From Clostridia bacterium (GTDB taxonomy: Bacteria > Bacillota > Clostridia > TANB77 > CAG-508), in contig JAFWKV010000001.1 in assembly GCA_017511265.1 (NCBI GenBank), positions 64,553-128,552 of the forward strand: 64,000 nt of DNA, in the 5' to 3' direction. Below are positions 4,896-62,425 of the stretch, in pieces. Positions within the stretch are counted from its first letter, which is position 1, and every line of letters starts with the position of its first letter. The translations under genes and the position numbers were made by a program. The notes beneath the pieces are model-generated. The model did no database searches, was not told the origin of the DNA, and saw only the letters and a program-made list of their open reading frames with translations.

Positions 4896-7802
4896 TTATC
4901 TTGTTAAAAACTTTGACGGCATAAATGCTTGTCTACCATCATTTAGTTGTATTCTAAGCCAATCAAATCCATCTATATTGTTATATGTACCTTGATTAAT
5001 TACAGTAACACTCGTTCCATCTGACAATGCTGTTATTTTGTCCAAACGTGTACTAGGTCCTACTCTAACATTACATCCAATTCCATCAGCTGTTTTTACT
5101 TTTGCTGTGTAATTACAGTTTGTTACATCTGCCACTTGTTTTAAGTAAGTACCAGACATATAGCCTATGGTTCCATCTGTCATTATTACTTTTTGCCAAT
5201 TACTATTTATTCCTCTTTGTACTGATAATACAATTTCTCCCTGTGCAACTGTTCTTAATTTTTCTGAATTTGTATCAGCCTCTTTTCTAAGTCTTAATCC
5301 TCCATTGGCAGTTATTTGTACATTAATAGGTGATGTTTCAGAATTATTTGTTGGTAGTTGTGAACCTTTGTTATCTATATTATCAATATTTTCATACAGT
5401 GGTATAACAAATGTAAATCCTGAATCAATTTTTCCTGTATTTACATACATTCCCCTTAATGTTCTAGCTTCACTGTATGCTGCCATTAGATTTTGCATAT
5501 ATTGATGTTGATATAATGGCGTTCCATTTTGTTTATCAATATCAAATTTATTTTGATATAGAGTATTTTGGTAATTCTCTAACCAATTATCCTTGCAGAA
5601 AGATATTCCTCCTTCTAATGCTTTTTGCATCGTATCCCATCCATATGCCTTTGCTTTTGCTAATGCATTATTATATATTGCAGTTTTTCCATTTCCTGAA
5701 GCACCTATATTAAATGGATTATAATACGTCTTTCCATCTCCTCCATTCATTCCTGTTCCTATTGTTGTTCCTTTAGTTCCTTGCTCCTGAATAACTCTTG
5801 CAATTATGTAGTATGGATTTACATTTTGATTTTTGCATGCATTATCAATTGCTGCTGCATAATTTGCTAAAAATGTATTCGAGACTTTTTGTTGTATTCC
5901 TTCTAATGTGCAAATTCCTTGCAAATATTCATTTAGTTTTTGGAATTGGAATACATTTGTATCATCTAAAAAATTACGTGGATCCATATAGTATGCTATT
6001 GCTTTTTCAGAAGCACAATACCAGCCGCTATCATAAAGCTTTGTTCCACATATTGGACAAACCCATTCTCCTGAATAAGATGAAGGCACCAAGTTTCTTG
6101 AATGAACTGCATATTCTCCCTTTATTGCTTCATCAAATGTAAGTCCTGTATATAATAGTTCGAAGTTCCATTCAGGATGTAAATTAATTAACCCTTCTAT
6201 TTTTTCCTTATATCCCGGATATTTTGAAATATCTATTGTGTTTACAATAGCAGATGGTTTTATAAATTTAAATTTTTGAGCATTTGTTCCATTTCCATCA
6301 TATACTTGTATATTGTTGCCATTGTATGCCATTCCAGCTCCTAAATCTAAATATAACTGGTTGCATTTTGATATTATTGAATACGTGTCATCTGAATTTT
6401 TTTGTATTATCCATTTTTGAGCATCTGTATTGTTGTATTCATACTGCCATACATTGGTTCCAGCTTTTTTTAATCCACAATATACATCTAATACTTTGTT
6501 TGAGCATTGTGCTGTTATTACGTAATAGCCATCAATATATTCTACTTTAAATTTTTGGCTGGTTGTTGAATTTTTTTCATATATCTGAACATTAGCCTCA
6601 TTTTCTTTCGAACCTCCACTAACATCTAATACATAATTGCTTGATACTGCTGTTTCTATTATATATGTTCCATCTTCTATTGTTTTGTGACTTTCAATTT
6701 GTTTTTGTTCTTCTTTTATTGGTTCCACACTAATATTGTTGTTTTCTCTTTTTTCTTCTTTTTCTATTTTTTCTGTATCTTCACTTTGGTCATTGTCTTC
6801 AACATTTTCAAGAATAAACTTCTGAGCTTTTGTTCCATTTCCATTATATACCTGTATATTGCTTCCATTTTGTGCTAAGCCACAATCTACATCTAGACAT
6901 AATCCATTACATTTTGATATTATTGAATATGTGTTATCTGAATTTTTTTGTATTATCCATTTTTGGGCATCCGAGTTATTAAATTCATATTGCCATACAT
7001 TAGTTCCTGCAGTTTTTTGTGCTGCATATACATCTAATACTTTATTTGAACCAATTGATGTTATTTTGTAATATCTATTATCTATCTTTTCTATTTTCCA
7101 TTTTTGGGCATTTGTGTCATTTCTTTCATATAATTGCACATTAGCACCATCGGTTTTTGCCCCCCCATTTACATCTAATACATAATCTTGGTTTAATGCT
7201 GATTTTATTATATACGTCTCTTCAGCTATGTCTGCTGAAATCGTATTTTTTGAATTTAATGACTCTATATAGTATTTTTGTGCTTTTGTTCCGTTTCCAT
7301 CATATACTTGTATGTTTCCTCCATTTTGTGCTATTCCACAATCAAGATCTAAACATAATCCATTACATTTCGATATAATTGAATATGTGTTATCAGCATT
7401 TTTCTGTATAGTCCATTTTTGAGCATCCGAGTTATTAAATTCATATTGCCATACATTAGTTCCTGCAGTTTTTTGTGCTGCATATACATCTAATACTTTA
7501 TTTGAACCAACTGATGTTATTTTGTAATATCTATTATCTATCTTTTCTATTTTCCATTTTTGGGCGTTTGTATCATTTCTTTCATATAATTGCACATTGG
7601 CTTCATTTGCTTTAGATCCACCGTCTACATCTAACACATAGTCTTGATTCACTGATGATTTTATGATATATACTCCTTCTTCTATGTCTTGTGTGCTTAT
7701 ATTTTCTCCTGCAAAAGAAATAATAGCATTAATACTAAGTATTTGAAATAAAACAAATACTATTAATGCTATTATTGACTTTGTTTTTATATTATCTTTC
7801 AT
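4896..7802 (-). CDS. Cell-wall hydrolase: three ricin-type (QxW) beta-trefoil lectin modules, GH73-like N-acetylglucosaminidase, two SH3b domains
   Basis: Likely start is ATG 7802, preceded by AAGGAGGG; signal peptide follows. Repeated ...NAQKW...YSIISKCNGLCLD... trefoil units. NPYYIIARVIQEQG...YNPFNIGA glucosaminidase-like block. C-terminal SH3b-like repeats (GYMSGTYLK, RQAFMPSKFL). Confidence 0.7.
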   Translation of the reverse strand: MKDNIKTKSIIALIVFVLFQILSINAIISFAGENISTQDIEEGVYIIKSSVNQDYVLDVDGGSKANEANVQLYERNDTNAQKWKIEKIDNRYYKITSVGSNKVLDVYAAQKTAGTNVWQYEFNNSDAQKWTIQKNADNTYSIISKCNGLCLDLDCGIAQNGGNIQVYDGNGTKAQKYYIESLNSKNTISADIAEETYIIKSALNQDYVLDVNGGAKTDGANVQLYERNDTNAQKWKIEKIDNRYYKITSIGSNKVLDVYAAQKTAGTNVWQYEFNNSDAQKWIIQKNSDNTYSIISKCNGLCLDVDCGLAQNGSNIQVYNGNGTKAQKFILENVEDNDQSEDTEKIEKEEKRENNNISVEPIKEEQKQIESHKTIEDGTYIIETAVSSNYVLDVSGGSKENEANVQIYEKNSTTSQKFKVEYIDGYYVITAQCSNKVLDVYCGLKKAGTNVWQYEYNNTDAQKWIIQKNSDDTYSIISKCNQLYLDLGAGMAYNGNNIQVYDGNGTNAQKFKFIKPSAIVNTIDISKYPGYKEKIEGLINLHPEWNFELLYTGLTFDEAIKGEYAVHSRNLVPSSYSGEWVCPICGTKLYDSGWYCASEKAIAYYMDPRNFLDDTNVFQFQKLNEYLQGICTLEGIQQKVSNTFLANYAAAIDNACKNQNVNPYYIIARVIQEQGTKGTTIGTGMNGGDGKTYYNPFNIGASGNGKTAIYNNALAKAKAYGWDTMQKALEGGISFCKDNWLENYQNTLYQNKFDIDKQNGTPLYQHQYMQNLMAAYSEARTLRGMYVNTGKIDSGFTFVIPLYENIDNIDNKGSQLPTNNSETSPINVQITANGGLRLRKEADTNSEKLRTVAQGEIVLSVQRGINSNWQKVIMTDGTIGYMSGTYLKQVADVTNCNYTAKVKTADGIGCNVRVGPSTRLDKITALSDGTSVTVINQGTYNNIDGFDWLRIQLNDGRQAFMPSKFLTR
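6812..7723. repeat. Near-identical tandem duplication (period 456 bp) inside the lectin-hydrolase gene
   Basis: The block starting GAATATGTGTTATC at 6925 recurs at 7381, with only scattered substitutions over more than 200 nt. The encoded ~152-aa double-trefoil units differ at a handful of residues. Boundaries approximate. Confidence 0.85.
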
Positions 7803-7891
7803 TTGTATTTCCCTCCTTCTTTTGGTACAATCATATTTTATCATATAATGTAGAAAAAGGGAATACTTTTTTTATGGATATTTTAGGTAAA

Positions 7892-10800
7892 TTAATAATT
7901 TTTATAGCATATATTCATATCAACTACTGTATTTATACCAGGTATCCATCCAGAGCTTGTATATTGCCACATATCATATTTATTTCTATAATCTGTTTGT
8001 TTATCACTACTACCTGTATAATGAGCAACCCAAATATCATATCCTCCTAATTGTGATAAATCTAAATCATTATAAAACCAATATTTACTTGCATAAATTC
8101 CTGGTATATATCCAGCATTGCGTATTGTATCACAAAATGCCCTACATACGGCTGTTCTTGTGTATCTATCTAAGTTATCAGCTCTTCCTGGATTATCTGC
8201 TGCTGCTGTAGACCTTTCTGTATCTATGTATATTGGATATTTTAAATACAATCCATATTGCTTTGCTAAATTTATAACATAGTTTGCCTCTTCAACTGCT
8301 TCTTGTGTATTAACTGCTTGCGTATAAAAATATAAACCAATATCTACTTTATTTTCTTTTATTCCTGCAATATTTTCTTCAAAGTTGCTATCTGTTACTA
8401 TTTTTCCTGTTCTGTATCCTCTATATCCTGTTCTTATTATTGCATAATCTACATTTCCAAATCGTTTTACTATTTGCCAATTAATGTCACCATTGTAACT
8501 ACTAACATCTATACCTCTTCTGTTTAATAGTGTATTAAATTTAAACATTTGTGCTATAGAAGTATTTCCCTTATAAACATGTACATTAGTTCCGTTAGCA
8601 GTTCCATTTCCTACAACATCTAAATAAAATCCTATGGCTTTATTTTTTATTTTGTAATAACCATTTCCTGCAATTTCTATACTCCACTGCTGATTATCTT
8701 CATTTTTATCTGATGCTTGTACAACATTATTATTACCTAATGCAGTTAAAACTTTATTAGAATGTCTTGCGATAATTTTATAATAAATGCCATCTATATT
8801 TTCAAATGAATACACTTGTTGATTTACATTATCTTGAGTCCATATTTGTAAATTTGCATTTTCACTATTTGAACCACCATCAATGTCTAAACATTTATTT
8901 TCATCTTTTTTTATTGATACTTTATAATAATTTTCTTCGATTACAAGAGCTGGCTCAAAAATAAATTTTTGAGCTTTGCTTTCATTGCCTTCATATATTT
9001 GAACATTAGTACCATTCGTAGTTTTTCCTCCACTAATGTCTAAATATAAATTTGAATTCAATGCAACTATGTAATAGCTTCCATTATCTGCTTTTTGAAT
9101 CGCCCATCTTTGAGCTATAGTATTATTGCCCTGATACTGCATTACATTTGTTCCATCTGTTTTTCCATTTCCGCACACATCTATATATTTTCCTGAATTA
9201 ACTGATTGTATTGTATAATACTTTTCGCCATTGTTGTAAGTTACTTTATATTTTTGTTGTTGGACATATGCTCTATCCCATATTTGAAGATTTGCACTAT
9301 TATTAAAACTTCCACCTGATATATCTAAAACTTTATTATTGTTTAGCATTGAACTTATGGTATAATAACCATCTTCTATAGTTTTTTCACTATTTAGTTC
9401 ATTTTCTAGTTTTAGAAATTTAAATTTTTGAGCGTTTGTGTTATTACCTTCATACATTTGTAATTTTGTTCCATTTTCTGCTCTACCTCCTGGAACATCT
9501 AAATATAACGCATTGCATCTTGAAATTAAATAATAATAATCATTTTCTGCTTTTTTTATAATCCACTGTTGCATATTGGAACCATTTTCATCATTTTGTT
9601 GTATTTGTGCTCCATTTGAATGTGATCCATTTACTACCTCTAATGCTTTTTCTGATTTTAATGATTGAATTTTATAATACCCATCACCTATGTATGCAAC
9701 TTTAAAACCTTGGCTTTTATTTATAACTCCTAGTTTTTTAGCAATTTGAATTTTTTTGTTATTTGCTGTTGATTGACCTTCCATTTCTATAACTTTATCA
9801 TTATTGCATTTTGGTACTATATTGTAAATTCCATCATCTATTGTTTGTTCCCCAACATTTACTTCTGCTTTAAGAAATTTGAATTTTTGTGCTTTTGTAC
9901 CATTACCTTCATATGTTTGCACATTTGTTCCATTTTCTGTTCTAGCTCCACTAATATCTAAATATAATTCATTACATTTTGATATTATACTATAATATCC
10001 ATCTTCTGTTTTCTTTAAAACCCATCTTTGAGCATCTGTATTATTACTTTCATATTGTGCAACATTTGTTCCATTATCTTGTCCTGCAGCAGAAACATCT
10101 AATACTTTTCCTGAATGGATTGCTGTAATAATATATGCCTTTTTGCTAGAATCATAAGAAATATTAAATTTTTGATATTCTTTGTCAATTTTATCCCATA
10201 TATTTACATTAGAGTTATTTTCATAGTTGCCATTACCTACTCGTAATACCTTGTTTTTTGATAATGCAGAACAGATATAATAGTCTCCTTCTTGTAAAAT
10301 ATTTTCACATTGTAATTTTTCAACTTTATTAAGCATAAATTTTTGTGCATTAGTACCATTTTGTTCAAATATCTGTATATTTGAACCATCTTGAATATTT
10401 CCGCCATAAGATATCTAAACATTTATTAGTATTTTTTGAAATTATGTTATAATTTTGACTGTCTATCTTCTTTATTTCCCATTGTTGTGCTAAAGTACCA
10501 TTATACTCATATAATTGAACATTCGTATAGTTTTCTTTTCTTCCGGCATTCAATATCTAGCACTTTATTTCCTTGTAGTGCTTTTATAATATATGCCTTT
10601 TTTTCTTTATCATATATAATATAAAATTTTTGTTTTTTTAAATGTTTATTCGTCCCTATATTTATATTTGTTCCATTGCTATATGTAGTATTAGAAATAT
10701 TTATTATTTTACTATTGTCCACACTTGAGCAAATTTCATATATTCCATCTTCTATCGTTTTTTCTTCATTTTTTTGTTCAGCTAGCTTTTTATGTTCATC

Positions 10801-29826: not shown

Positions 29827-30828
29827 TTAGTTTATTTTAAATGCTAAAAAAGCAATGAATGGTAAATGAAATAACACAATTTCTTTGCACATTTTTTTTA
29901 TTAGATTTTTTCCACCTAAAAGTTTAAAATACCTAATAAAGTGTATATTCATAATTCTTGTTTTTGAAATCATTTCATAATAAGCTATTAATTGTTTGCA
30001 AAGCAACTTGTCCTCGTTATTTTCTGCGTAGTCAAAGCACATTTTAGCTGCATCTAGATAGCAATTCTCAATTGCCCATTTTCTATATTTTCTAAAAGTA
30101 TCATAATTATTACCATACTTTTCTTTCCATCTTGCCAAATTTTGATTTAAACTTCTACCTCCAAAAACATTAGAGGTATGAAGTCTATAATCAAATAACT
30201 CATCATAAATATAATCAATACCATTCAATTCATTCGCAATAAATCCAGCTAACCAATCATGAGCTATAACGTCTGTTTTGAATGGAATCATTTTTTCTTT
30301 TACTTCTTTTGTAATTATTTGCGAACAACCTATTCCTGCATATCTTGATATAGCAAGCTTACTTTTTCCCTTTATAAGTGGTATATTCTTATGCTTAAAG
30401 TAATCTGTGCATATTACATTTCCATTTTCGTCAATTTGCCTACAATTAACATATACTAAACTACTATTTGTTTCTTTTATTTTTATTAAACTTTTTTCTA
30501 CCTTGTCATTGTGCCATACATCATCATGGTCACAAAACATTATATAATCTGCGGTTGATTGTTTTAAAAGAAATTCAAAATTACTATTGAATCCAATATT
30601 TTTTTCTTGCATAAAAATAATTACTCTGTCATCTTTTTCTTCATATTCTTTTAAAACTTGTCCCACATTTTTTTCAGTTGATGCATCATCACTAATGTAA
30701 ATTTTTATATTTTTGTGTGTCTGATTAAGTAAGCTATCAATTTGCTCTCGCAAAAAATTCTCATTTGAATTATAAGTTGCAAGCAAAATATCAACTAAAT
30801 CGTCATTCATACACTTTCTTTCCCTCAT
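29827..30828 (-). CDS. GT2 glycosyltransferase (rhamnosyltransferase-like family)
   Basis: VDILLATYNSNENFLREQIDSLLNQT...ISDDAST...CDHDDVW. The true start may be ATG 30810 (MNDDL). Confidence 0.8.
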   Translation of the reverse strand: MRERKCMNDDLVDILLATYNSNENFLREQIDSLLNQTHKNIKIYISDDASTEKNVGQVLKEYEEKDDRVIIFMQEKNIGFNSNFEFLLKQSTADYIMFCDHDDVWHNDKVEKSLIKIKETNSSLVYVNCRQIDENGNVICTDYFKHKNIPLIKGKSKLAISRYAGIGCSQIITKEVKEKMIPFKTDVIAHDWLAGFIANELNGIDYIYDELFDYRLHTSNVFGGRSLNQNLARWKEKYGNNYDTFRKYRKWAIENCYLDAAKMCFDYAENNEDKLLCKQLIAYYEMISKTRIMNIHFIRYFKLLGGKNLIKKMCKEIVLFHLPFIAFLAFKIN

Positions 30829-30840
30829 TTTTTAATTTTC

Positions 30841-31003
30841 TTTAGATGTTGATATATAAATATATAAATACGAAAATCTTTGTGTGTCGCAAGCTACGAA
30901 CTAAAAGTACTAGTCTGTAGCTTGCTCCAATCGCACTCGTTTCACTCGTTTGGTCGCTTACGCAGATTTTCTTTATTTATATATTTATATATCAACATCT
31001 AAA
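30841..31003. repeat. Hairpin element HP-A1 (family A): 30-bp perfect arms plus 101-nt conserved core
   Basis: Arms 30841-30870 and 30972-31003 are exact reverse complements. Inner helix GAAAATCT/AGATTTTC. Core 30871-30971 is the reverse complement of the HP-A2 core (about 90% identical by eye). Confidence 0.95.
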
Positions 31004-31020
31004 ACAATATCTAAAAAATT

Positions 31021-32080: not shown

Positions 32081-32320
32081 TATGTAGATAGTTGTTACAG
32101 GAAAGGTTAAAGTTAGATAAATGCGTTCAGATGCCAATATGTATAAATAAAGAAAATCTGCGTAAGCGACCAAACGAGCAAAGCGAGTGCGATTGGAGCA
32201 AGCTACATACTAGTATTTTTATTTGGAGCTTGCGACACACAAAGATTTTCGTATTTATACATATTGGCATCTGAACGCATTTATCTAACTTTAACCTTTC
32301 CTGTAACAACTATCTACATA
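32081..32320. repeat. Hairpin element HP-A2 (family A): 69-bp perfect arms plus conserved core
   Basis: Arms 32081-32149 and 32252-32320 are exact reverse complements. Core is 32150-32251. The right arm contains the last codons and stop of uppP (32310-32320). Confidence 0.95.
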
Positions 32321-33133: not shown

Positions 33134-33424
33134 GGGCGTGTCAATGGGGACGGGTTTAATTGACACACTGATGATTTTTGGGTTGGTGTGAAAAAGTATC
33201 ACTTGAATAGCACTCTTATTGTTAAAAAATGAAGACCGCGTAGGCGGAGCGAAGCGTAGTCGGCTGGAGCTTTCGTTTCATTAATACATTTCAATGAAAA
33301 AAAGCGACAACAAGGTCGTAATGTTTAACAATAAGAATGATACTCTAGTTGATGCTTTTTCACCCCAACCCAAAAATCATCATCAGTGTGTCATTTAAGC
33401 CCGTCCCCATTGACACACGTCCCC
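33134..33424. repeat. Hairpin element HP-B1 (family B): imperfect ~100-nt arms plus conserved core
   Basis: Arms contain inverted copies of the 31-nt motif TGTGTCAATTAAGCCCGTCCCCATTGACACA (33137-33167 reversed, 33387-33417). Core 33234-33317 is about 90% identical to 52641-52726. The right arm encodes the last 12 codons of dpaA. Confidence 0.9.
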
Positions 33425-36261: not shown

Positions 36262-36961
36262 ATGTTATCACTTTGTTTAACAGGTTTTTTAGAATTTTTT
36301 AAAATCGCTACATTTTGCGTTCGGCTATATACAAGGAGGCAATTTATTTCCAGAACCATTGACTATGGAAGAAGAAAAGCTTTGCCTTGAAAAATTTAAA
36401 AATGGAGATGATGAAGCCAGAAATATATTAATAGAGCGAAATTTAAGATTAGTTGCACACGTTTGTAAAAAATACGCTAATACAAATGTTGATCAAGATG
36501 ACTTAATTTCAATTGGAACTATTGGATTAATTAAAGGGATAAATAGTTTTAATGTTGATAAAGGTTCAAAGCTTTCTACATATGTTTCTCGCTGCATTGA
36601 TAATGAAATTTTAATGCATTTACGTGCTACGAAGAAATTGAGTAATGAGGTTTATTTAAATGAGCCTATTGGAAAAGATAAAGATGATAATGTTATAACT
36701 CTTCAGGAAATTTTGGAAAATGATGATAGAGATATTGAGGAAGTTGTAGATATACGAATGAAAATAAAAGAATTATATCGTAAAATGAAAGAAATTTTAA
36801 AAGATAGAGAAAAAACTATCTTAGAACTGCGTTTTGGCTTAGGTGGACAAAAGCCAAAAACGCAAAATGAAATTGCTAAAATGTTAGGTATTAGTAGAAG
36901 CTATGTTTCAAGAATTGAAACAAAAGCAATTAACAAACTAAGTCATGAAATTCGAGAATAA
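36262..36961 (+). CDS. sigK: Sporulation sigma factor SigK with pro-sequence; needs a +1 frame change at the T4 run 36313-36316
   Basis: 36359-36961 encodes LIERNLRLVAHVCKKY, DLISIGTIGLIKGI, CIDNEILMHLRATKK, ISRSYVSRIE (SigK-like). In-frame upstream codons give FGYIQGGNLFPEPLT (mature N-terminus) but have no start. ATG 36262, with GGAGGTG 5 nt upstream, encodes MLSLCLTGFLEFFKIATF in the adjacent frame. Removing one T joins the two frames. Confidence 0.8.
36313..36316 (+). other. T4 run where the sigK pro-sequence and body frames meet
   Basis: GCT ACA TTT TGC in frame 1 versus CAT TTT GCG TTC GGC TAT in frame 2. Confidence 0.7.
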
Positions 36962-37158
36962 TTATTACAATTCACAGCTTTTTATATTAATATGTCCTGC
37001 CACGTGGTGAATACATAAAATTTTTTTCAAAACCTACGTCTTTGCCTTCGGCAAAAACATAGCTGGGGTCTTCCTACCGGTTTTGATTTAAAAAAATTTT
37101 ATTGTATTAACCACGGTCGCGGACTTTAAGTTAAATTGGCTGTGAATTGTAACAATTA
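36959..37158. repeat. Hairpin element HP-C1 (family C), degenerate arms
   Basis: Outer arms 36959-36978 and 37139-37158 pair with one A.C mismatch. Inner arms are imperfect. Apex has a TTTGCC-TTCG-GGCAAA hairpin, then AAAACATAGCTGGGGTCTTCCTA (37054-37076), identical to 56088-56110. The left arm starts at the sigK stop codon. Confidence 0.85.
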
Positions 37159-37245: not shown

Positions 37246-38577
37246 ATGCAAATTGTAACATTAATCATACTTGTAGCAATCAATGCCTTTTTTGCAGCAT
37301 CAGAAATGGCATTTGTAACACTAAATGATGCAAAAATTGCCTCACTGGCAAAAGAAGGAAACAAAAAAGCAAAAAAAATTCAAAAAATGTTAAATAAACC
37401 TAGTAAATTTTTAGCAACAATTCAAATAGGAATAACTCTTGCAGGATTTTTATCAAGTGCCTTTGCAGCAGACACATTTGTTAGTGTTCTAGCACCTGTT
37501 TTACAAAAAAGTATGCCATTTTTCAGCATAGAAATATGGCAAGGAATTTCACTAGTACTTATCACTATTTTGCTTTCATTTTTCACACTTATCTTTGGCG
37601 AATTAGTGCCAAAAAGAATAGCTATGAAATTTTCAGAAAAGGTTGCATTTTTTGCTGTAGGACCAATTCATTTTGTTTCTGTCATTACTGCACCTTTTGT
37701 AGCATTTTTAACAGCATCAACAAACTTCATTTCTAAATTATTTGGTATTAGCGAAACAGATGAAGAAACAGTTACTGAAGAAGAAATAAGAATGATGGTC
37801 AATCAAGGTGGAGAAAATGGAGCAATAGATGATAGTGAACAAGAAATGATAAATAATGTGTTTGAATTCAATGACAAAGAAGTTTCTGAAATAATGATTT
37901 ATAGAACTGAAATTTTTGCAGTTGATGGAGACACTACAGTAGCAGAATTTGAAAAAATTATTGAAAAAGAAAATTATAGATATAGTAGAATCCCTGTATA
38001 TGATAAAACTATTGATAATATGCAAGGCGTTGTATATTTAAAAGATATTCTAAAGGCAAAAGATAATAAAAATGATAGCAGTACAAGAATCAAAAAAATT
38101 ACTAGAAAAATTTTATTCTTCCCAGAATCTAAATTTATTAATGATGCATTTAAAGAAATGCAAGTAAATAAAATTCAAATGGCTGTTGTTCTAGATGAAT
38201 ATGGTGGAACTACTGGTATTGTAACAATGGAAGATATTCTTGAAGAACTCGTTGGCGATATTTATGATGAATATGATAAGGTTGAATTTAAATATGAAAA
38301 ATTAGATGATAATACTTTTAGACTTGATGGTTCTATGCCAATATTTGATGTAAATAAAATAATGGAAATAGAACTTCCTGAAGGTGATTATGATACTTTA
38401 TCTGGATTTATTATAAATGAATTAGATAGAATTCCTGAAGACAATGAGCGTCCAACTGTTGAAACACCACAAGCTGTATTTAAAGTTACAAAAATTCAAA
38501 ATAGAAAAATTGAACGCGTTAAGGCTTGTAGAACTAAAACTTTAGAAGGAAAAAATGAATCTGTCGATGAAGGCTAA
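37246..38577 (+). CDS. CNNM/TlyC-family membrane protein (DUF21, CBS pair, CorC_HlyC domains)
   Basis: N-terminal 4-TM DUF21 (GELVPKRIA), a CBS pair, and a C-terminal TGIVTMEDILEELVGDIYDEYD transporter-associated domain. The last 9 codons lie in the HP-D arm. Confidence 0.85.
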   Translation: MQIVTLIILVAINAFFAASEMAFVTLNDAKIASLAKEGNKKAKKIQKMLNKPSKFLATIQIGITLAGFLSSAFAADTFVSVLAPVLQKSMPFFSIEIWQGISLVLITILLSFFTLIFGELVPKRIAMKFSEKVAFFAVGPIHFVSVITAPFVAFLTASTNFISKLFGISETDEETVTEEEIRMMVNQGGENGAIDDSEQEMINNVFEFNDKEVSEIMIYRTEIFAVDGDTTVAEFEKIIEKENYRYSRIPVYDKTIDNMQGVVYLKDILKAKDNKNDSSTRIKKITRKILFFPESKFINDAFKEMQVNKIQMAVVLDEYGGTTGIVTMEDILEELVGDIYDEYDKVEFKYEKLDDNTFRLDGSMPIFDVNKIMEIELPEGDYDTLSGFIINELDRIPEDNERPTVETPQAVFKVTKIQNRKIERVKACRTKTLEGKNESVDEG

Positions 38578-38822
38578 GCTTTTTGATGGTTTGGCTAGAG
38601 CAGATGATTAGTTAAATTATTGAAATTTCGAATGTGCAGTGGAGCAATTGTACAAAATATTAAAGAGAAGTCAAAAAGGGTCCTGTCTTCGGGTATAGTT
38701 TTGACTTCTCTTTTAGATTTTGTAAATTGTGTAGCAAGCCGAGAAATGTAAATAATTTAACTAATCATCTGCTCTAGCCAAACCATCAAAAAGCTTAGCC
38801 TTCATCGACAGATTCATTTTTT
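38550..38822. repeat. Hairpin element HP-D: 71-bp perfect outer arms, imperfect inner stem, GC-rich apical loop
   Basis: 38550-38620 is the exact reverse complement of 38752-38822. The inner stem includes AAAGAGAAGTCAAAA/TTTTGACTTCTCTTT around the loop AGGGTCCTGTCTTCGGGTAT (about 38677-38696). The arms cover the stops of both convergent genes. Confidence 0.95.
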
Positions 38823-40043
38823 TCTTCTAATTATCCAATCTTTCTCACACTTTATAGGTAAATGCATAAATACCTTTTGTCCTTGTCTTCCGGGATTTAC
38901 AGTATCAATTTCTTCTTGTGTTTCAATATCCCATAGTCTATCAATTACAAATTTATATGGCTCTATCTTACTTGGAATAATAATTTCAAGCATATCTCCC
39001 ACTTGTAATCTATTACGTATTTCTATTACAGATTTATCATCATTATACTCTACTACTTTTCCTCCAAATTGATATTCTGCATTATACTGTTTTCCTGCAT
39101 ATTCTTGTATGTCTTTGTTCTCTCTATCATTGAAATAAAATGTAGTTAATCCTCTTGTTTTAACCTTTTCTATTTCTTTTAAATATTTAGTATAATCATA
39201 ATTTTCATGGTCTTTTTCATAATCGTCTATTGCATTTCTATATACATTTATTATGCTTGCTAAATAATATTCTGTTTTTAATCTTCCTTCAATTTTTAAG
39301 CTATCTACACCCATCTCAATTATTTCAGGAAGTTCTTTTATTAGGCATAAATCTTTTGAAGAAAAAATGCTTGTACCATATTCATTTGTTTCAATTGGCA
39401 TTAACTCCCCTGGATTGTTTGCTTCTTCTGCATATAAATTATATGACCATCTACAGCTTTGTGCACAATCTCCTAAATTTGCACTTCTGCCTGTCATAAA
39501 ATCACTTAAAAAGCATCTGCCAGAAAAAGCAAAGCAAATTGCGCCATGAATGAATATTTCAATTTCCATATCTTTGCTTTTGTTTTCTACAATGTACTTT
39601 AGCTGTTCTTTATTCATTTCTCTTGCCATTATCATTCTTTTCGCACCTTGCTTATGCCAGAAGTTGCAAGTATGTAGACTAACAAGATTTGCCTGTGTAC
39701 TCATGTGTATGTCAATACTTGGAGCATACTGTTTTACAATTTCTACTACTCCACCATCTGCTACAATAACTGCATCTGCTTTTAATTCTTCTAGCATTTT
39801 AACTTGCTCAATTATTTCTTCATATTTGTCGTCCCAAGCATAAATGTTTAATGTAACATATACTTTTTTACCTATACTATGTGCATATTTTATTGTGTTT
39901 GCTAAATCTTCGTTTTCCATATCTGCTCTGGTTCTTAATGATAATGAAGATGTACCACAATAGACTGCATCTGCTCCATACAAAAAGGCTATTTTTGCTT
40001 TTTCGAATGAACCGGCTGGTGCTAACAATTCAATTTTTTTCAT
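38814..40043 (-). CDS. Peptidase U32 family protein (YrrO/TrhP-like)
   Basis: ELLAPAGSFEKAKIAFLYGADAVYCG, EIFIHGAICFAFSGRCFLS: U32 hallmarks. Start at ATG 40043, preceded by AAGGAGG. Sits next to a YrrM-like methyltransferase, as in B. subtilis yrrMNO. Confidence 0.85.
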   Translation of the reverse strand: MKKIELLAPAGSFEKAKIAFLYGADAVYCGTSSLSLRTRADMENEDLANTIKYAHSIGKKVYVTLNIYAWDDKYEEIIEQVKMLEELKADAVIVADGGVVEIVKQYAPSIDIHMSTQANLVSLHTCNFWHKQGAKRMIMAREMNKEQLKYIVENKSKDMEIEIFIHGAICFAFSGRCFLSDFMTGRSANLGDCAQSCRWSYNLYAEEANNPGELMPIETNEYGTSIFSSKDLCLIKELPEIIEMGVDSLKIEGRLKTEYYLASIINVYRNAIDDYEKDHENYDYTKYLKEIEKVKTRGLTTFYFNDRENKDIQEYAGKQYNAEYQFGGKVVEYNDDKSVIEIRNRLQVGDMLEIIIPSKIEPYKFVIDRLWDIETQEEIDTVNPGRQGQKVFMHLPIKCEKDWIIRRKK

Positions 40044-40059: not shown

Positions 40060-40128
40060 GTTGTCAATTAGGTCGGGATGTGTCAATTAAGCCCGTCCCC
40101 ATTGACACACCCCGACCTAATTGACAAC
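40060..40128. repeat. REP-like hairpin HP-R1 (28-bp stem, 13-nt loop) containing the 31-nt motif
   Basis: GTTGTCAATTAGGTCGGGATGTGTCAAT / ATTGACACACCCCGACCTAATTGACAAC with one A.C mismatch. Motif copy at 40079-40109. Fills the gap between the methyltransferase stop (40130) and the U32 RBS (40050-40056). Confidence 0.9.
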
Positions 40129-47279: not shown

Positions 47280-47421
47280 GATGTTTTTTGGGACGTGTTG
47301 TGTCAATGGGGACGGGCTTAATTGACACGCTTGATGCCTTAGTAGAAATTTTTAAGTCACCAAAGCATTAGTGTGTCAATTAAGCCCGTCCCCATTGACA
47401 CAACCCATTCCCAAAATCATC
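47280..47421. repeat. REPIN-like doublet HP-R2: two inverted copies of the 31-nt motif forming a ~65-bp imperfect hairpin
   Basis: Motif copies at 47299-47328 (reversed) and 47372-47402. The flanks GATG..TTTTGGGA.. and ..TCCCAAAATCATC also pair. The element occupies the whole sufS-sufU spacer and includes the first bases of the sufS stop codon. Confidence 0.9.
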
Positions 47422-52538: not shown

Positions 52539-52827
52539 TGCTGTCTTTTGGGACGGGGCAAAAAAACATCACCTGCTGTCTTTTGGGACGGGGTTAAAAA
52601 ACATCATCATCTCCATTAGCTATATTTATTAAAAAATGTAGACCGCGTAGGCGGAGCGAAGCGTAGTCGTCTGGAGCTTTCTCTTCACTAATATAAATTT
52701 CAATGAAAGAAAGCGACAACAAGGTCGTAATGTTTAATAAATATAACCAATGGAGATGATGATGTTTTTTAACCCCGTCCCAAAAGACAGCAGGTGATGT
52801 TTTTTTGCCCCGTCCCAAAAGACAGCA
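52539..52827. repeat. Hairpin element HP-B2 (family B): ~92-bp near-perfect arms plus conserved core
   Basis: Arms pair from 52539/52827 inward with only two mismatches (52618.52748, 52620.52746). Each arm carries two copies of CTGTCTTTTGGGACGGGG (52541-52558, 52576-52593; reversed at 52773-52790, 52808-52825). Core is 52641-52726. Confidence 0.95.
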
Positions 52828-52834
52828 AAATGCA

Positions 52835-53728
52835 TCATCTTTCATTGTATTTTTCTAATTCAGTTTGAAATTCTTCAAGTAATCTGGCAAGTCTACTTTG
52901 TTGTTCTATATCTTCAGCTCTTTCCTGTAAACTTGTAATTCTTCTTATATAAGCATCAGCATTTTGCATTATTTCTTCTCTATTCCTTTGTCTATAAAAG
53001 TCAATAGCTTCTCTTGATGATGCAAATCTGCTATCTCCACTTTGCCATACAAGTTCAGGCTTATCTTCAACATAGCCACGTTTAAATGCACAAGTTCTAG
53101 AAATAAGGTTTCTTCTTTCTATTTCATCTAATGTTTCTAGCATTCTAACATATGAGTCATCATGATATCTAGGTTGAACAATACGAGGTGTTAAGCCATT
53201 TTCTCTATAGTACTGTTCACGCTCATAACACGATAATAAGCTTTCATATCTATCTACCGCTAGAATCGCCACATCAATATCATATCCTCCATTTTTTTGA
53301 TAATCTAGTATTGACAAATATCCATCCTTGCTTGCAAAAGTACCTTCTTGAACAACATTTACCTTTAAATCTACTCCTTTTCTCCTTAAGTGTTCATCTA
53401 ATGCAGGTCTAATAAATCTTTGCAAAATTTGAAAGCTGTCATCTGGATAATGTCTCATTATCTCTGCATAATGTTCATGATAAGGTCCAATATTATCTGG
53501 ATTAAATTCTACAAATGATGCTAATCTACCAGTATTTTGTCCTTGATTAATAACATATGTTTTTAACCCAGTTTTACCAGCTCCTGGCTGAGCAACAACA
53601 AATACTGAATATGGATGTTTACTTGGCTTACATGTCATAAACACACCCATTTCTGCTCTACTTAAGCTACTAATATATTCTTCTTCTGTTAAATCGTATT
53701 CTGAGCCTATTGGCATTTCTTCTTTCAT
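52835..53728 (-). CDS. Zeta-toxin-family kinase
   Basis: Walker A VVAQPGAGKTG, FNPDNIGPYHEHY, VVQEGTF, helical C-terminal tail. Preferred start is ATG 53728, preceded by GGAGG; the ORF track starts at 53740. Visibly more G+C than its neighbours. Confidence 0.75.
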   Translation of the reverse strand: MKEEMPIGSEYDLTEEEYISSLSRAEMGVFMTCKPSKHPYSVFVVAQPGAGKTGLKTYVINQGQNTGRLASFVEFNPDNIGPYHEHYAEIMRHYPDDSFQILQRFIRPALDEHLRRKGVDLKVNVVQEGTFASKDGYLSILDYQKNGGYDIDVAILAVDRYESLLSCYEREQYYRENGLTPRIVQPRYHDDSYVRMLETLDEIERRNLISRTCAFKRGYVEDKPELVWQSGDSRFASSREAIDFYRQRNREEIMQNADAYIRRITSLQERAEDIEQQSRLARLLEEFQTELEKYNER

Positions 53729-53739
53729 ACAATCCTCCA

Positions 53740-53943
53740 TTATTTATTTTTGACTTCTTCCAAATATACTGTTAGAACTTTTTCTATTATCTGTTCATTA
53801 TTATTGTATATTTCATTTTTTTCATCATATAATATTTGCATATTTTCTTTGAATTTATTAAAATCTTTTTCTTGATTATTTTTTATTGAATTTGCAATCT
53901 TTAAATTAATTATATATAATGCTAGTTCTTTTCTATTATTCAT
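53740..53943 (-). CDS. Small helical protein, candidate epsilon-like antitoxin
   Basis: 67-aa K/E/N-rich ORF whose stop abuts or overlaps the zeta start (TAATG). No sequence similarity recognised; call rests on position only. Confidence 0.4.
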   Translation of the reverse strand: MNNRKELALYIINLKIANSIKNNQEKDFNKFKENMQILYDEKNEIYNNNEQIIEKVLTVYLEEVKNK

Positions 53944-53966
53944 ATTTCCTCCTAATAATCTCTTAA

Positions 53967-54428
53967 TTAGTCTATTAAAGTTGTTTCTTTTAATAATAGT
54001 ATATTTTCACAATTTTCGTCTATTTTTCTCAAAATTGATGGATCATCATCAATAAATATAATTTGCGAATCTTTTTGTTCTAAACTTGTAATAAATTCAT
54101 ATTTTAAATCAATTGCATTTTTTTCAAAATTATATTGCTCTCTAGATAATATATTTCTATTTTCTTTTTTAAAAAAAGGTGCAAACTCATCTAGCCATTT
54201 ATTTTTTTGTTCAATTCCCTCTGACATTCTTGTAACTGATAAAATATGTAATTTAACATTTGGCATTTTAGAAATTTCTTCTAACTTAGAAAGAATACTA
54301 ACTAGAGGTCTCTTTTTGTCATATCTTGCTGGTACCCCAACTTCATAGTCTGCAATAACTCCATCCATATCAACATACATGTCTACATTTTTATTGTCTA
54401 AATCTTTTAAAATATCAAAAATAATCAT
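53967..54428 (-). CDS. HAD-superfamily 5'(3')-deoxyribonucleotidase-like protein (NT5C family)
   Basis: Motif I VDMDGVIADY near the N-terminus, late IFIDDD motif, about 150 aa. RBS AGGAGA 7 nt upstream. Confidence 0.6.
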   Translation of the reverse strand: MIIFDILKDLDNKNVDMYVDMDGVIADYEVGVPARYDKKRPLVSILSKLEEISKMPNVKLHILSVTRMSEGIEQKNKWLDEFAPFFKKENRNILSREQYNFEKNAIDLKYEFITSLEQKDSQIIFIDDDPSILRKIDENCENILLLKETTLID

Positions 54429-54519
54429 ATTATATTCTCCTAACTTTTATAATATCTTTTGCTATTATAACACCTTAATTACTTTTTTGCAAATTTCGAT
54501 GGATTTTTTATATTTTTTA

Positions 54520-54528
54520 TGCTAAAAT
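54520..54528 (+). promoter_or_regulatory. Extended -10 element upstream of the RelA/SpoT-like gene
   Basis: TGcTAAAAT about 28 nt upstream of ATG 54556. The -35 region is weak (TGGATT). Confidence 0.3.
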
Positions 54529-54555
54529 ATTGTGTTGGTGGAGGTGAATTACTAT

Positions 54556-56002
54556 ATGTCATTAGATAGTAACACATTTAGAGAACGAAATAAACAACAT
54601 CCTATTAGAAAAAACGCATTAGAAAATTTTAGTAAAGTTACAAATTTTTCTGTAAGCAAAGATGTAAGAAGATATATGTATCAAGTTATGGCAACAATTG
54701 GCTTAGAGCTTGAGCGAAAATTCCCAAATACAGTACATTTTGATGATAACCGGTTTTAAAATGTTCGGTCGTATAAAATCTGAAAAGAGTACATCTGAAA
54801 AAAAAGCATCGAATATACAAGATTATGATGATAAATTTCAAACTGCTATAGAAGAGCAAAAAGACATACCTACAGAAGTAAGACCTATTTTTGATTTTTA
54901 TGCTTACAAATTAGTATGTCCTGAAATTACAAACTCTCATGATGTAATAAATACTGTAATTTCAGATATTTTAACTGATATTGGAAAACATTCACCCAAA
55001 TATCTATCATACATAACTGAATTAAAAAGTAGTATTGATATATCGCGTTTTCCTTCATTAGAATTTATTACTAACAATTTTTCAGATAAATATCCTAATT
55101 TAAAAGATAAGTTAGCAGCTGTAATGTATACTCAAAATGAGGCAAATAAAACTCAAGAATTTTTGGATAATGCTCCTAAAGATGTATCAAATCTTACTTA
55201 TTCAGAATATTATTCAAAAATAATTGAATGTTATCAACTTTTAATTAATCTTTCGTATGATGATTCTATTGAAGAATATACTCGTATTGCAAAATTAGCT
55301 AAGCAGTCTAGAGAGCAATTACATCAAATAATTGAACAAGGTAAAAGTCATCAAAAAATTGATAAACAGTTCCATAAAGAATACGGAGATACTTTAGAAA
55401 AACTATTAAAACATGTTTCAAAAAAGCGAACAAACAGGCTTGACCTAACAATTTGTGATTTGATGGTCTTCGATGTTTTAACTACTTGTGAATCATTAAA
55501 AAAGTTAGGAGTGTCTTATTCAAAGGATCCTACTAGAACTAAGAAAAAGAGGAAGCAAAATGGCTACATAGCAAATTTTTATAGTTTAGATATGCCAAAT
55601 GGATTAACATCTGAAATTCAATTACAATCACTTTATAGATATGAATATGGTGAGTATGGACCTGCAGCACATCATAAAATGGAAAATGGATTAAAGAAAA
55701 GAACTTTATTTAAAAGACCTAAAAACAAAAGTAAATATGCAGATTGGGCTGAGAAGCAATTTAAAGCATTACCTAGATATTTTACCTATAGAGGTAATGG
55801 TTATGTTGAAGTACATAGCACTCTTCAAAATTTTAGAAAATATTATGACTGCAAAGATAAAAGTGAGGTTCAAACATATGTTGAATTTATTGCACAGCAT
55901 GATGTTGATTTATTAGATAGCCATCTTATACAATTTTCTTTGGATGATACTTCTCCTTTAAATAAATCAACAAAAGCAAATAATTCCGCAGAAGAACGCT
56001 AA
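54556..56002 (+). CDS. Atypical RelA/SpoT-homologue (RSH) nucleotidyltransferase-like protein; needs a +1 frame change at 54754-54759
   Basis: ATG 54556 follows GGAGGTGA. FGRIKSEKSTSEKK, FDFYAYKLVC, NGYIANFYSL...SEIQLQS...AAHHKM follow the order of RelA_SpoT synthetase motifs but are degenerate, and about 190 aa are inserted between them. The N-terminal 67 codons end at TAA 54757-54759. Skipping one T restores ...DDNRFKMFGRIKS. Confidence 0.55.
54754..54759 (+). other. TTT_TAA site joining the two RSH reading frames
   Basis: CGG TTT TAA AAT G in frame 0. Re-pairing Phe-tRNA on the overlapping TTT (+1) gives AAA ATG TTC GGT CGT = KMFGR. Confidence 0.6.
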
Positions 56003-56207
56003 GAACAATTTTTATAAATAAATAATAACTCATATACTATATAAATATAGAATCGCATGAATGTTGAATTATAAATATATTTGGAACAAAACATAGCTGG
56101 GGTCTTCCTATTGGTCTTGTTCCGACAATATATTTATAATTCAACATTTATGCGATTCTATATTTATATAGTATATGAGTTATTATTTATTTATAAAAAT
56201 TGTTCTT
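56001..56207. repeat. Hairpin element HP-C2 (family C): ~81-bp arms with a single G.T mismatch
   Basis: 56001-56081 pairs with 56127-56207 (mismatch 56059.56149). Apex GGAACAA/TTGTTCC encloses AAAACATAGCTGGGGTCTTCCTA (56088-56110). The right arm contains the last 7 sense codons and stop of the SEDS gene. The left arm starts at the last base of the RSH stop codon. Confidence 0.95.
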
Positions 56208-57292
56208 TGTCGTTTGCTGCTTATATTAAGTAATAGTCCTATACATACAAAGCTTGTTATTAATGAGCTTCCTCCATAACTAATAAACAAAAGCGGTATA
56301 CCTGTAATTGGAAGCAATCCAATTGTCATACCTATATTTTCAGCCATATGGAAGAAGAAAATTCCAGCAATGCCTATAGCAATATATGATCCCAAATTAT
56401 CATGTGCAGTTTTTGCTACATAAATTGCCTTTGTTATCAGAAATACATATAAAATAACAATTAAAGCAGCCATAATAAATCCTAATTCTTCTCCAATTGC
56501 CGCAAAAATGAAGTCTGTAGTTTTTGGATGTAAATAGCCTAATTGAGTTTGATTTCCTTGTAATAACCCCATTCCTAAAAGTTCACCTGCACCAACTGCT
56601 AATTTAGATTGAATTATATTATAGCCTGCTCCTCTTGGATCTAGCTCTGGATTTAAATATACATTTATTCTATTTTTTGCATAATCTGGTAAAACGAAAT
56701 TATATATTAGCGGTACAGCGACTGCAACAAGTACTGCTACAGTAATTATATATTTTTTATCTATTCCTGCTGTAAATAATATACATAATAATGCAATAAT
56801 GTATGCCATAGCAGTTCCATTGTCTGGTTCTTTAACAACTAGTCCTATCGGAATTCCAGCTATTAATAATATAAGTAATAACCATCCAAATTTATTTATT
56901 CTACTTATTCCTCTTTCTTGTATTTTCGAGATAGTAAAACTAAGAACTAATATTAAAAAAATTTTTGTAAATTCTGCTGGCTGAAATGTAAATGAACCTA
57001 AGTCAAACCAGCTTCTTGCTCCATTTACTGGCGTGGTAAATAAAACTCCCACCAGTAATGCACAAAAAAATACATACCATATCGGTGAAACTTTAGCTAT
57101 TACTTCATAATCAATTATTCCTACTATTAGCATTGCTACTACACTTATTCCAAGCCATATTGCTTGTTTTTTTAATTCTGAAAATTCTGTATTATACGAA
57201 ACTGTATATAATGCTATCATTCCAATTATAGTCAATGCTACTGCACAAATTAAAATTGCCCATTCTGTATTTTTTAGTCGTTGTCTTCCCAT
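56183..57292 (-). CDS. SEDS-family peptidoglycan glycosyltransferase (FtsW/RodA/SpoVE)
   Basis: 10-TM protein with GARSWFDLG, FQPAEFTKI, PDNGTA, LPITGIPLLFISYGGSS. Start at ATG 57292, preceded by AAAGGAGAAAAA. Confidence 0.85.
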   Translation of the reverse strand: MGRQRLKNTEWAILICAVALTIIGMIALYTVSYNTEFSELKKQAIWLGISVVAMLIVGIIDYEVIAKVSPIWYVFFCALLVGVLFTTPVNGARSWFDLGSFTFQPAEFTKIFLILVLSFTISKIQERGISRINKFGWLLLILLIAGIPIGLVVKEPDNGTAMAYIIALLCILFTAGIDKKYIITVAVLVAVAVPLIYNFVLPDYAKNRINVYLNPELDPRGAGYNIIQSKLAVGAGELLGMGLLQGNQTQLGYLHPKTTDFIFAAIGEELGFIMAALIVILYVFLITKAIYVAKTAHDNLGSYIAIGIAGIFFFHMAENIGMTIGLLPITGIPLLFISYGGSSLITSFVCIGLLLNISSKRQRTIFINK

Positions 57293-57339
57293 TTTTTCTC
57301 CTTTATGATTTTGGGAAACTGCCAAAATCATCTCTTTTA

Positions 57340-62212: not shown

Positions 62213-62235
62213 ATTCCCACTTCCTTAGCAAAAAT

Positions 62236-62425
62236 TATACCCCACTGGGCCGTAAGACTAGTTGAATTTTTAAGGACCTGCTCCTAAAAACAGGTGGGTG
62301 CCTACCTAAATATTCCTGGGCTTCTTACTGTACTGTAAGCTTGCACGCCATATTTGAGAGTTCGGCCCCTCTTAATGTGTGTTGGTTCTAAAAATTCCGT
62401 CTTTACAAACTTTGTAGGGTATATA
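62236..62425 (+). ncRNA. Candidate ~190-nt structured RNA, 6S-RNA-like long irregular hairpin (strand tentative)
   Basis: GC-enriched intergenic block. Paired ends TATACCC/GGGTATA, GTAAGAC/GTCTTTAC, AATTTTTA/TAAAAATT and GGACC/GGTTC enclose a central region with small hairpins (AGGTGG-GTGC-CTACCT; GAGAG-N8-CTCTT; CTTAC-N6-GTAAG). G.T pairs favour the plus strand. No sequence-level match to 6S can be asserted from memory. Confidence 0.35.

Follow-up and report, generated by a model that had tools for sequence, protein, structure and literature searches.

The DNA analysed here, referred to throughout as the window, is a 64,000-nt stretch from an uncultured gut Clostridia bacterium with a G+C content of ~27%. 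Within it, rodA and a gene for an RSH-like protein are convergent, and a long palindrome, HP-C2, lies between their 3′ ends (Table 1). HP-C2 is one of at least eight long hairpin elements in the window, several of which are composed of a conserved tip and near-perfect, locus-specific arms of 69-99 bp. Numbers with the prefix L (L001, L148 and so on) denote related loci or contigs that were fetched for comparison.

The original prediction, made from the window alone, described an 81-bp stem with one G.T mismatch, the right arm of which holds the final 25 nt of the SEDS gene (...RTIFINK-stop). Both points were confirmed: the mismatch is G56059 opposite T56149, the spacer is 45 nt, and the last 25 nt of rodA (56183-56207), beginning with the stop codon at 56183-56185, lie inside the right arm. 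The left arm, however, starts at the second base of the RSH-like TAA stop codon (56000-56002) and not at its last base, as had been stated. In the tip, the motif CAAAACATAGCTGGGGTCTTCCTA (56087-56110) is closed by a 7-bp stem, GGAACAA/TTGTTCC. Folded as single-stranded DNA, HP-C2 has a free energy of -87.4 kcal/mol, compared with -17.5 +/- 3.1 for shuffled sequences (z = -22), and 0/200 shuffles were as stable. A repeat finder stretched the arms to 55988-56220 at 93%; by our count only 7/13 of the outer nucleotides so added are paired, and, as switch-point microhomology beyond the perfect arms, these 7/13 matches cannot be told from chance in A-rich coding sequence. The identical 271-nt HP-C2 stretch was found in three metagenome assemblies from different samples (L010, L011 and L014), and the palindrome is therefore genuine and not an artefact of assembly. 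Three Logan contigs (L012, L013 and L015) terminate 28 nt beyond the RSH-like stop codon, which is 29-30 nt into the arm, and we read this as the assembler having been halted by the palindrome. A promoter and terminator scan, on the whole uninformative, returned 0 terminator-like sites in 55700-56500, and HP-C2 does not have a G+C-rich stem with a U-tract. An Rfam scan (gathering thresholds and E<=5) assigned no family to any of the hairpins in the window, the matches on them being to microRNA-precursor models and all sub-threshold. Above threshold, the window has a single Rfam family, 6S RNA (RF00013, 74.7 bits), at 62235-62423 on the minus strand.

The end of rodA is strongly conserved. All 120 best homologues of RodA, with identities down to 62%, end in KRQ[KR]TIF[IV]N[KR]-stop, and the DNA at the 3′ end of the gene is conserved as CARARAACAATWTTYRTWAATARRTAR in relatives that do not have the palindrome (L002, L003, L004-L007, L008, L009 and L148). 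These include L148, the RodA of which clusters at 90% with the RodA of strain L001. At the 3′ site of rodA, L002-L008 carry instead unrelated hairpins of 8, 24, 13 and 15 bp, while in L009 and L148 rodA is followed, after a short spacer, by another gene. As the exact complement of the last 25 nt of rodA is found at 56001-56025, and the rodA end is conserved in palindrome-free relatives, at least 56001-56025 is a secondary inverted copy. Judged by these alignments, the rodA end must be ancestral, the rodA side must be the donor, and the outer 25 nt of the left arm must be the copy. This bears out the earlier proposal that one arm is an inverted copy of pre-existing flanking DNA, and identifies which; the terminal codons and the DNA encoding them are both conserved in orthologues without the palindrome.

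The RSH-like protein of the window ends in ...AEER-stop, and nearly all of its homologues also end in R-stop. On this comparison the end of the RSH-like gene is likewise ancestral, so that the inverted copy starts exactly where the RSH-like coding sequence ends. The label RSH, given in the original prediction, is itself weak; the window protein matches RelA_SpoT with E = 0.15, although a 55%-identical homologue is above the Pfam cut-off. The gene is possibly of the toxSAS type. It belongs to a variable island (52835-56002) of toxin-antitoxin-like modules, comprising a Zeta toxin, the RSH-like gene and small open reading frames (ORFs), that spans the interval from rodA to an iron-dependent repressor gene, differs among strains and has long hairpins at both ends. 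In L149 and L150, a nonsense mutation interrupts the RSH-like gene (366 aa); in L001 the gene is frameshifted, and L148 and L002 do not have it.

The original prediction had suggested looking for intermediate stem lengths among strains. A variant stem was found in strain L001, the flanks of which are ~94% identical to those of the window (2-12 differences per 100 nt). Over 134 nt of the palindrome, there is no difference between the two, for which we calculate p ~2.5e-4 at 6% divergence. Identity extends over all 81 nt of the arm beside rodA, over the innermost 30 nt of the opposite arm and over the tip stem. The G.T mismatch, being common to the window and L001, is older than their split. In the arm, the differences are confined to 56004-56051 and consist of a 22-nt block at 56030-56051 and two isolated base differences, at 56004 and 56017. 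To turn the L001 arm into that of the window, a single inverted copy of 56157-56204, on the rodA side, would suffice, accounting for the block and both isolated differences, and no local template was found for a change from the window form to that of L001. At the apex, the window has TTCCTATT, which matches other family members, and L001 has GACCGGCGA, yielding a new GGTCGACC palindrome. A one-base frameshift in L001 causes the RSH-like ORF to read into the arm and to end in ...AKNNFY-stop.

The tip of HP-C2 is a dispersed repeat. It carries an 18-24-nt motif (CAAAACATAGCTGGGGTC...), and the full CAAAACATAGCTGGGGTCTTCCTA is repeated exactly within another hairpin element of the window, D1, of which L148 has an 88%-identical copy at another locus. 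When metagenome contigs were scanned with the 18-mer, there were 16 matches, of which 12/16 were in high-GC or otherwise unrelated contexts and were excluded. The four that were used, all low-GC contigs, have the motif at the tip of a hairpin (L135, L144, L139 and L142). The elements in L135 and L144 resemble D1, while those in L139 and L142 have a short core like that of HP-C2, with ~60 nt common to both and stems that differ, are perfect and are ~25 bp long. The stem in L139 begins directly after a stop codon. The outer stems of D1 and of the elements in L148, L135, L144, L139 and L142 are unrelated yet self-complementary. A scan of viral contigs for the tip motif gave no match. An association of D1 with CNNM genes was rejected, as the neighbours in L135 and L144 differ. 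The possibility that HP-C2 is a family A element (see below) with a deleted core was dropped, as the likeness of its inner arm to 30974-31016 was not reported by BLAST (E<=1), and a resemblance of TGGAAC...GTTCCGACAA in HP-C2 to the family A junction is unproven.

Table 1. Genes, hairpin elements and repeat units of the window (a dot denotes no assigned strand)
Feature	Position	Strand	Details
rodA (SEDS family, PF01098)	56183-57292	-	369 aa, start as in orthologues; ORF spans 56183-57331
RSH-like gene	54761-56002	+	413 aa, start as in orthologues; ORF spans 54710-56002
HP-C2 left arm (RSH-like gene side)	56001-56081	.	81 nt
HP-C2 tip (spacer)	56082-56126	+	45 nt
HP-C2 right arm (rodA side)	56127-56207	.	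81 nt
Family A copy (A1)	30828-31016	-	Core in opposite orientation; 43-nt arms at 86%
HP-A2, family A	32081-32320	+	69-bp perfect arms; right arm overlaps 11 nt of uppP
Family B element	33138-33416	+	Repeat units (GGGGACGGG core) mirrored in both arms; right arm supplies last codons of DpaA
D1 hairpin repeat	36959-37158	+	Same 24-nt motif as HP-C2 tip, at 37053-37076
HP-D	38542-38830	.	88-bp arms at 97%; overlaps CNNM and U32 3′ ends
Family B element	52539-52827	+	95-nt arms at 98%
Small repeat units	33138-33166, 33388-33416, 40060-40125, 47300-47328, 47375-47402, 52539-52606, 52760-52827		

Four of the other elements, namely the two of family A (A1 and HP-A2) and the two of family B, have a larger core in common, GCGTARGCG..GCRAAGCG..TGGAGC-[hairpin]-GCGACA(C)ACAA. 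At least 114 stretches matched this pattern when one genome per species was examined. Nearly all lie, several to a genome, in metagenome-assembled genomes (MAGs) of low-GC uncultured Clostridia from the gut of rabbit, goat, buffalo, mouse and human hosts, and around a dozen that are high in GC are attributed to chance. Among the matches listed, there are >80 copies of family A in other MAGs, with arms mostly of ~20-35 nt at 95-100%, and the core is oriented 23 times sense and 34 times antisense to the neighbouring genes, with no strand bias. The family A copies of the window have arms of 79-95 aligned columns. BLAST found no match to the family A core in plasmid or phage collections. At least three families of repeat core are common in gut Clostridia MAGs, have no match in Rfam or in the phage and plasmid collections searched, and appear to be undescribed. 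In one of these genomes, Lapin-010 bin8 (L022, L045, L055, L065, L088 and L112), copies of family A lie within conserved arms of >100 nt that contain ATGTAGCTGGGAG, which is similar to the HP-C2 tip motif, and this hints that the core families may be parts of larger composite elements.

Only the inner ~10-25 nt of the arms are common to different copies and the outer arms are locus-specific, although in some genomes arms of ~30 nt are conserved among copies. The cores of A1 and HP-A2 are 90% alike, with arms that are alike for only ~22 nt beside the core; beyond this, the HP-A2 arm consists of ~50 nt of locus-unique sequence that is 100% self-complementary. Similarly, the HP-D core (38614-38760) is 81% identical to a copy in L148, with just ~16-18 nt of arm shared, compared with window arms of 88 nt. 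One internal stem of HP-D is fully compensated relative to L148 (AGAGAAGTC/GACTTCTCT vs TCGCAAATC/GATTTGCGA, most positions differing), and the arms are swapped relative to the core, which is to say that the core is inverted. Copies within one MAG display compensated substitutions, one-base indels paired in both arms and uncorrected intermediates. Within copies, 64/1769 paired arm positions (3.6%) are mismatched, and these include 12 G.T and 14 A.C. With no excess of G.T over A.C, pairing is not biased as selection on a single RNA strand would predict. Inverted repeats with arms >=60 nt number 4 in the 64-kb window and 2 in 732 kb of related loci that had been selected for carrying family A, or 6.2 vs 0.3 per 100 kb. 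The elements are also polymorphic in their presence: that at 52.6 kb (52539-52827) is absent from the same site in L001, L146 and L147 are without an element at the HP-D site, and a C-type copy in L148 has no equivalent at that position in the window.

Small repeat units with a GGGGACGGG or CCCCGTCCC centre (Table 1) are short inverted repeats that are mirrored in both arms of large hairpins. They often lie immediately before a ribosome-binding site or directly behind a stop codon, and similar units stand beside family A elements in other MAGs (L026, L030, L094, L102 and L107). At the 52.6-kb site, L001 has a different unit of this kind. In L026, a family A core is found in the dpaA-uppP spacer (3391-3430), in the same orientation as the window element at 33138-33416. 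L026 is a distant MAG, with UppP 35% and DpaA 53% identical to those of the window, and either the shared position is old and conserved or it is a target that is preferred. Repeats of another sort make up two very large ORFs (982 and 814 aa) at 4896-10336 on the minus strand, which contain diverged ~93-nt and ~300-nt repeats and which we would guess encode surface proteins.

The original prediction had extended the inverted copying of gene ends to uppP, CNNM and U32, and this held to differing degrees. The U32 end, ..DWIIR[RK]K, lies in the right arm of HP-D and is conserved in L146 and L147, and is ancestral. The last 12 residues of CNNM lie entirely in the left arm, where they take the place of a tail that, in homologues, is variable and acidic. 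For uppP the test is a weak one; UppP can be aligned with a distant orthologue to residue 265/266, which lends slight support to an ancestral end. In the relatives, the CNNM-U32 spacer (L146 1469-1716; L147 1488-1890) is unrelated, structured-looking sequence without HP-D, and that of L147 includes a tandemly duplicated ~90-nt unit (...GCCTCTTAACTAGGTAAATCCAGA..). At dpaA, the situation is the reverse of that at rodA, as here the element supplies the gene end. The last nine codons (..CVNGDGLK-stop; 33391-33420, minus strand) come from the repeat unit GTGTCAATGGGGACGGGCTTAA, and the DpaA of L026 is alignable only to residue 281/291.

We consider that HP-C2 is probably (at about 0.6) a copy of a dispersed hairpin repeat, the stem of which has been lengthened and kept uniform by template switching during replication. 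The starting point would have been a short dispersed hairpin repeat between the 3′ ends of rodA and the RSH-like gene, and its stem would have been lengthened well past the 25-35 bp usual for such repeats. As the hairpin is copied, the nascent strand would pair with the opposite arm, on itself or across the fork, copy outward beyond the end of the old stem and then go back to its own template. Such a process would be of the type known as quasi-palindrome correction, here with extension, which was reportedly described by Ripley in 1982. What was copied, in reverse complement, into the outer part of the RSH-side arm would be the final 25 nt of rodA together with the bases that follow the gene. 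Since the donor side is unaltered, the stem may enter the rodA coding sequence without cost, and, since the recipient side is overwritten, growth would end at the stop codon of the RSH-like gene, where selection would protect the recipient gene and its conserved terminal residue. The resulting hairpin may also act as a stem-loop at the 3′ end of each of the two convergent mRNAs. At imperfect inverted repeats, template switching is known to equalise arms, extend them and invert spacers (PMC5941160, PMC8794818, PMC13100816). It agrees with all the features described here and would account for the asymmetry between an untouched donor side and a recipient side overwritten only so far as selection permits. 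The idea of outward growth from a small seed was already part of the original prediction, and growth is supported by the HP-A2 arms and the L001 variant, with the amendment that the seed is the core of a dispersed repeat. The prediction had also set this apart from classical transposition with target duplications. By eye, no direct target duplications are seen at HP-C2 (ACGCT on one side vs TGTCG on the other) or at the Lapin-026 copies, the ends of the elements being blurred. The cores are dispersed and are polymorphic between close strains, and some form of spread must therefore coexist with stem growth.

Several observations weigh against this reading. Template switching is inferred as the copying process, and no event has been directly observed. 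The part of the left arm at 56026-56051, and its partner, have no counterpart in relatives. The two arms stay in register across the 21- and 22-nt blocks by which L001 and the window differ, as would be expected if L001 had lost a formerly perfect stem, and the change could have run in either direction. None of the other cluster members is informative as an outgroup, since L148 has neither the RSH-like gene nor the palindrome, and L149 and L150 are of the window type and truncated. The arms of different copies in one genome diverge by 14-37%, and this is a crude measure; a first test of divergence within vs between copies was confounded by a conserved internal loop beside the core, and the revised version is still crude. 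The ORFs scanned at 29-60 kb include no transposase or integrase, and template switching does not account for the way in which cores reach new loci. Selection at the RNA level for pairing is also possible.

Four other explanations can be weighed against the same evidence. That the palindrome is a chimeric fold-back made by the assembler is a possibility we regard as practically negligible, even though short-read assemblers do break here, with three Logan contigs terminating in the arm, because the palindrome is identical in three other assemblies, and a variant of it is found in a fourth strain with both flanking genes intact. Unlikely, in our view, is that the arms are equalised, and their boundary shifted outward, by arm-to-arm gene conversion through recombination or cruciform repair. 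It would account for the same facts of concerted arm evolution, paired indels and core inversion, and recombination between inverted repeats classically inverts a core relative to its arms. However, arms of 25-35 bp are short for RecA-dependent exchange. Conversion moreover needs existing homology, and extension into sequence that was never complementary is difficult for it, unlike for template switching (PMC13100816). Recombinational conversion may nevertheless contribute, above all to the inversion of cores.

An insertion-coupled inverted duplication, in which integration of a mobile core copies one flank in inverted orientation and the long arms are born at insertion (possibly from a hairpin-capped break repaired by fold-back priming), seems to us distinctly unlikely. 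The outer arms of HP-A2, HP-D, L139 and L142, perfect yet locus-specific, are what it would produce, and the presence or absence of cores among close strains and the lack of visible direct target duplications agree with it. Most copies of family A elsewhere, however, have arms of ~25-35 nt that are shared within the genome, with outer flanks that are not complementary, and as these ordinary copies have no flank-derived arms, inverted flank copies are not a regular product of insertion. The inner G.T mismatch of HP-C2 is, in addition, common to L001 while the outer arm differs, so that the layers of the stem are of unequal age. We give still less credence to a functional RNA, whether a 3′ stabiliser or terminator of both convergent mRNAs or a small RNA, in which pairing is selected and the overlap with rodA is a by-product. 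Intergenic stem-loops do govern mRNA processing and stability in Clostridia (PMC4423207), the elements, including that in L139, are located directly after stop codons, 134 nt of HP-C2 are invariant where the flanks are 6% different, and the tips are conserved across species. Against this stand the absence of any Rfam match and, in 55700-56500, of any terminator-like U-tract site, the lack of strand bias of the family A core (23 sense vs 34 antisense among the matches listed), and arm mismatches with no preference for G.U wobble (12 G.T vs 14 A.C). A perfect 25/25 match with the rodA end is furthermore beyond the reach of point mutation and selection alone.

A wider and considerably more doubtful proposal is that the conserved tips (families A/B, C and D) belong to a group of small mobile elements in gut Clostridia that has yet to be described. 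Such elements would move without conserved terminal repeats and without duplicating their targets, perhaps through templated copying or with the help of a hairpin-specific enzyme. Every copy would then become the seed of a palindrome that extends itself, inverts its core and overwrites the 3′ ends and tails of adjacent genes, and in the lineage of the window this would proceed ~20x faster than in relatives. Whatever its merit, at least three repeat-core families in gut Clostridia MAGs have been brought to light, and this genome offers several loci with distinguishable donor and recipient sides, at which the limit to stem growth, or how far a stem extends before selection on a gene stops it, is visible. 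In places, gene tails have been rewritten, as in the CNNM tail, the frameshifted RSH-like gene of L001 and the DpaA tail. As short-read assemblies break at long palindromes, such structures are probably under-counted in MAGs.

The elements described here share features with several known systems. In MITE-like (miniature inverted-repeat transposable element) and REP-like families, conservation is found in the terminal repeats and direct target duplications are usually present, and the REP/BIME/REPIN, Correia, ERIC and RPE repeats are short, non-coding, multi-copy, intergenic, hairpin-forming and strain-polymorphic, sometimes adding codons to genes. A review covering such bacterial repeats is available (PMC10969869). 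The window elements have in common with them dispersed non-coding copies (the tip motif has copies at two loci of the window, in L148 and on four metagenome contigs), hairpins, strain polymorphism and the contribution of codons. They differ in having a conserved tip on stems that are for the most part specific to their locus, so that the outer arms are not conserved terminal inverted repeats; by eye no target duplication was seen, nor was there a partner transposase among the ORFs scanned at 29-60 kb. REP sequences and REPINs have conserved GTAG-type arms, a variable spacer and a RAYT, and here the layout is reversed, the centre being conserved and the arms varying. With no RAYT among the ORFs scanned at 29-60 kb, identity as a REPIN was rejected. 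The attC sites of integrons are imperfect palindromes 3′ of cassette genes, often toxin-antitoxin genes, with structure conserved more than sequence, and it is their outer boxes (RYYYAAC / GTTRRRY) and not their centre that are conserved. The ends of HP-C2, AAGAAC / GTTCTT, misfit these boxes, the elements are scattered among housekeeping genes, and no integrase was found in the scanned interval; identity as attC was therefore also rejected.

Intrinsic terminators and 3′ stabilising stem-loops of Clostridia are found directly after stop codons and can be shared by convergent genes (PMC4423207, PMC9045158). The position of HP-C2 is like theirs, and relatives carry hairpins of 8-24 bp at the same spot, but HP-C2 is without a G+C-rich stem or U-tract and its stem is several times longer. 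Long perfect inverted repeats that overlap coding sequence are known from the mitochondrial genes of Nematomorpha, where they are inside genes and both arms are coding (PMC6649704). Here, the stems straddle gene ends instead, with an unchanged donor side and a recipient that is a 3′ flank or a variable tail.

A close parallel is quasi-palindrome correction, or template-switch mutation, in which, as proposed for HP-C2, sequence on one side is replaced by an inverted copy of what lies on the other. There, as here, arms become perfect and can expand, relatives differ by multi-nucleotide clusters, and spacers can invert. To our knowledge, natural cases of template switching repeatedly building very long stems in a bacterial chromosome are rare. 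The process has been studied in E. coli, yeast and primates (PMC5941160, PMC8794818, PMC13100816), and the cases in these papers involve short inverted repeats, with 5-bp arms in the example of PMC5941160. Unlike these, the elements of the window have arms of 69-99 bp, occur at several loci per genome, are seeded by dispersed cores and enter the coding ends of housekeeping genes. Template switching at quasi-palindromes is a well-established mutation process; what would be new here is how large the stems are, how often they recur and how they affect gene ends in a bacterial chromosome.

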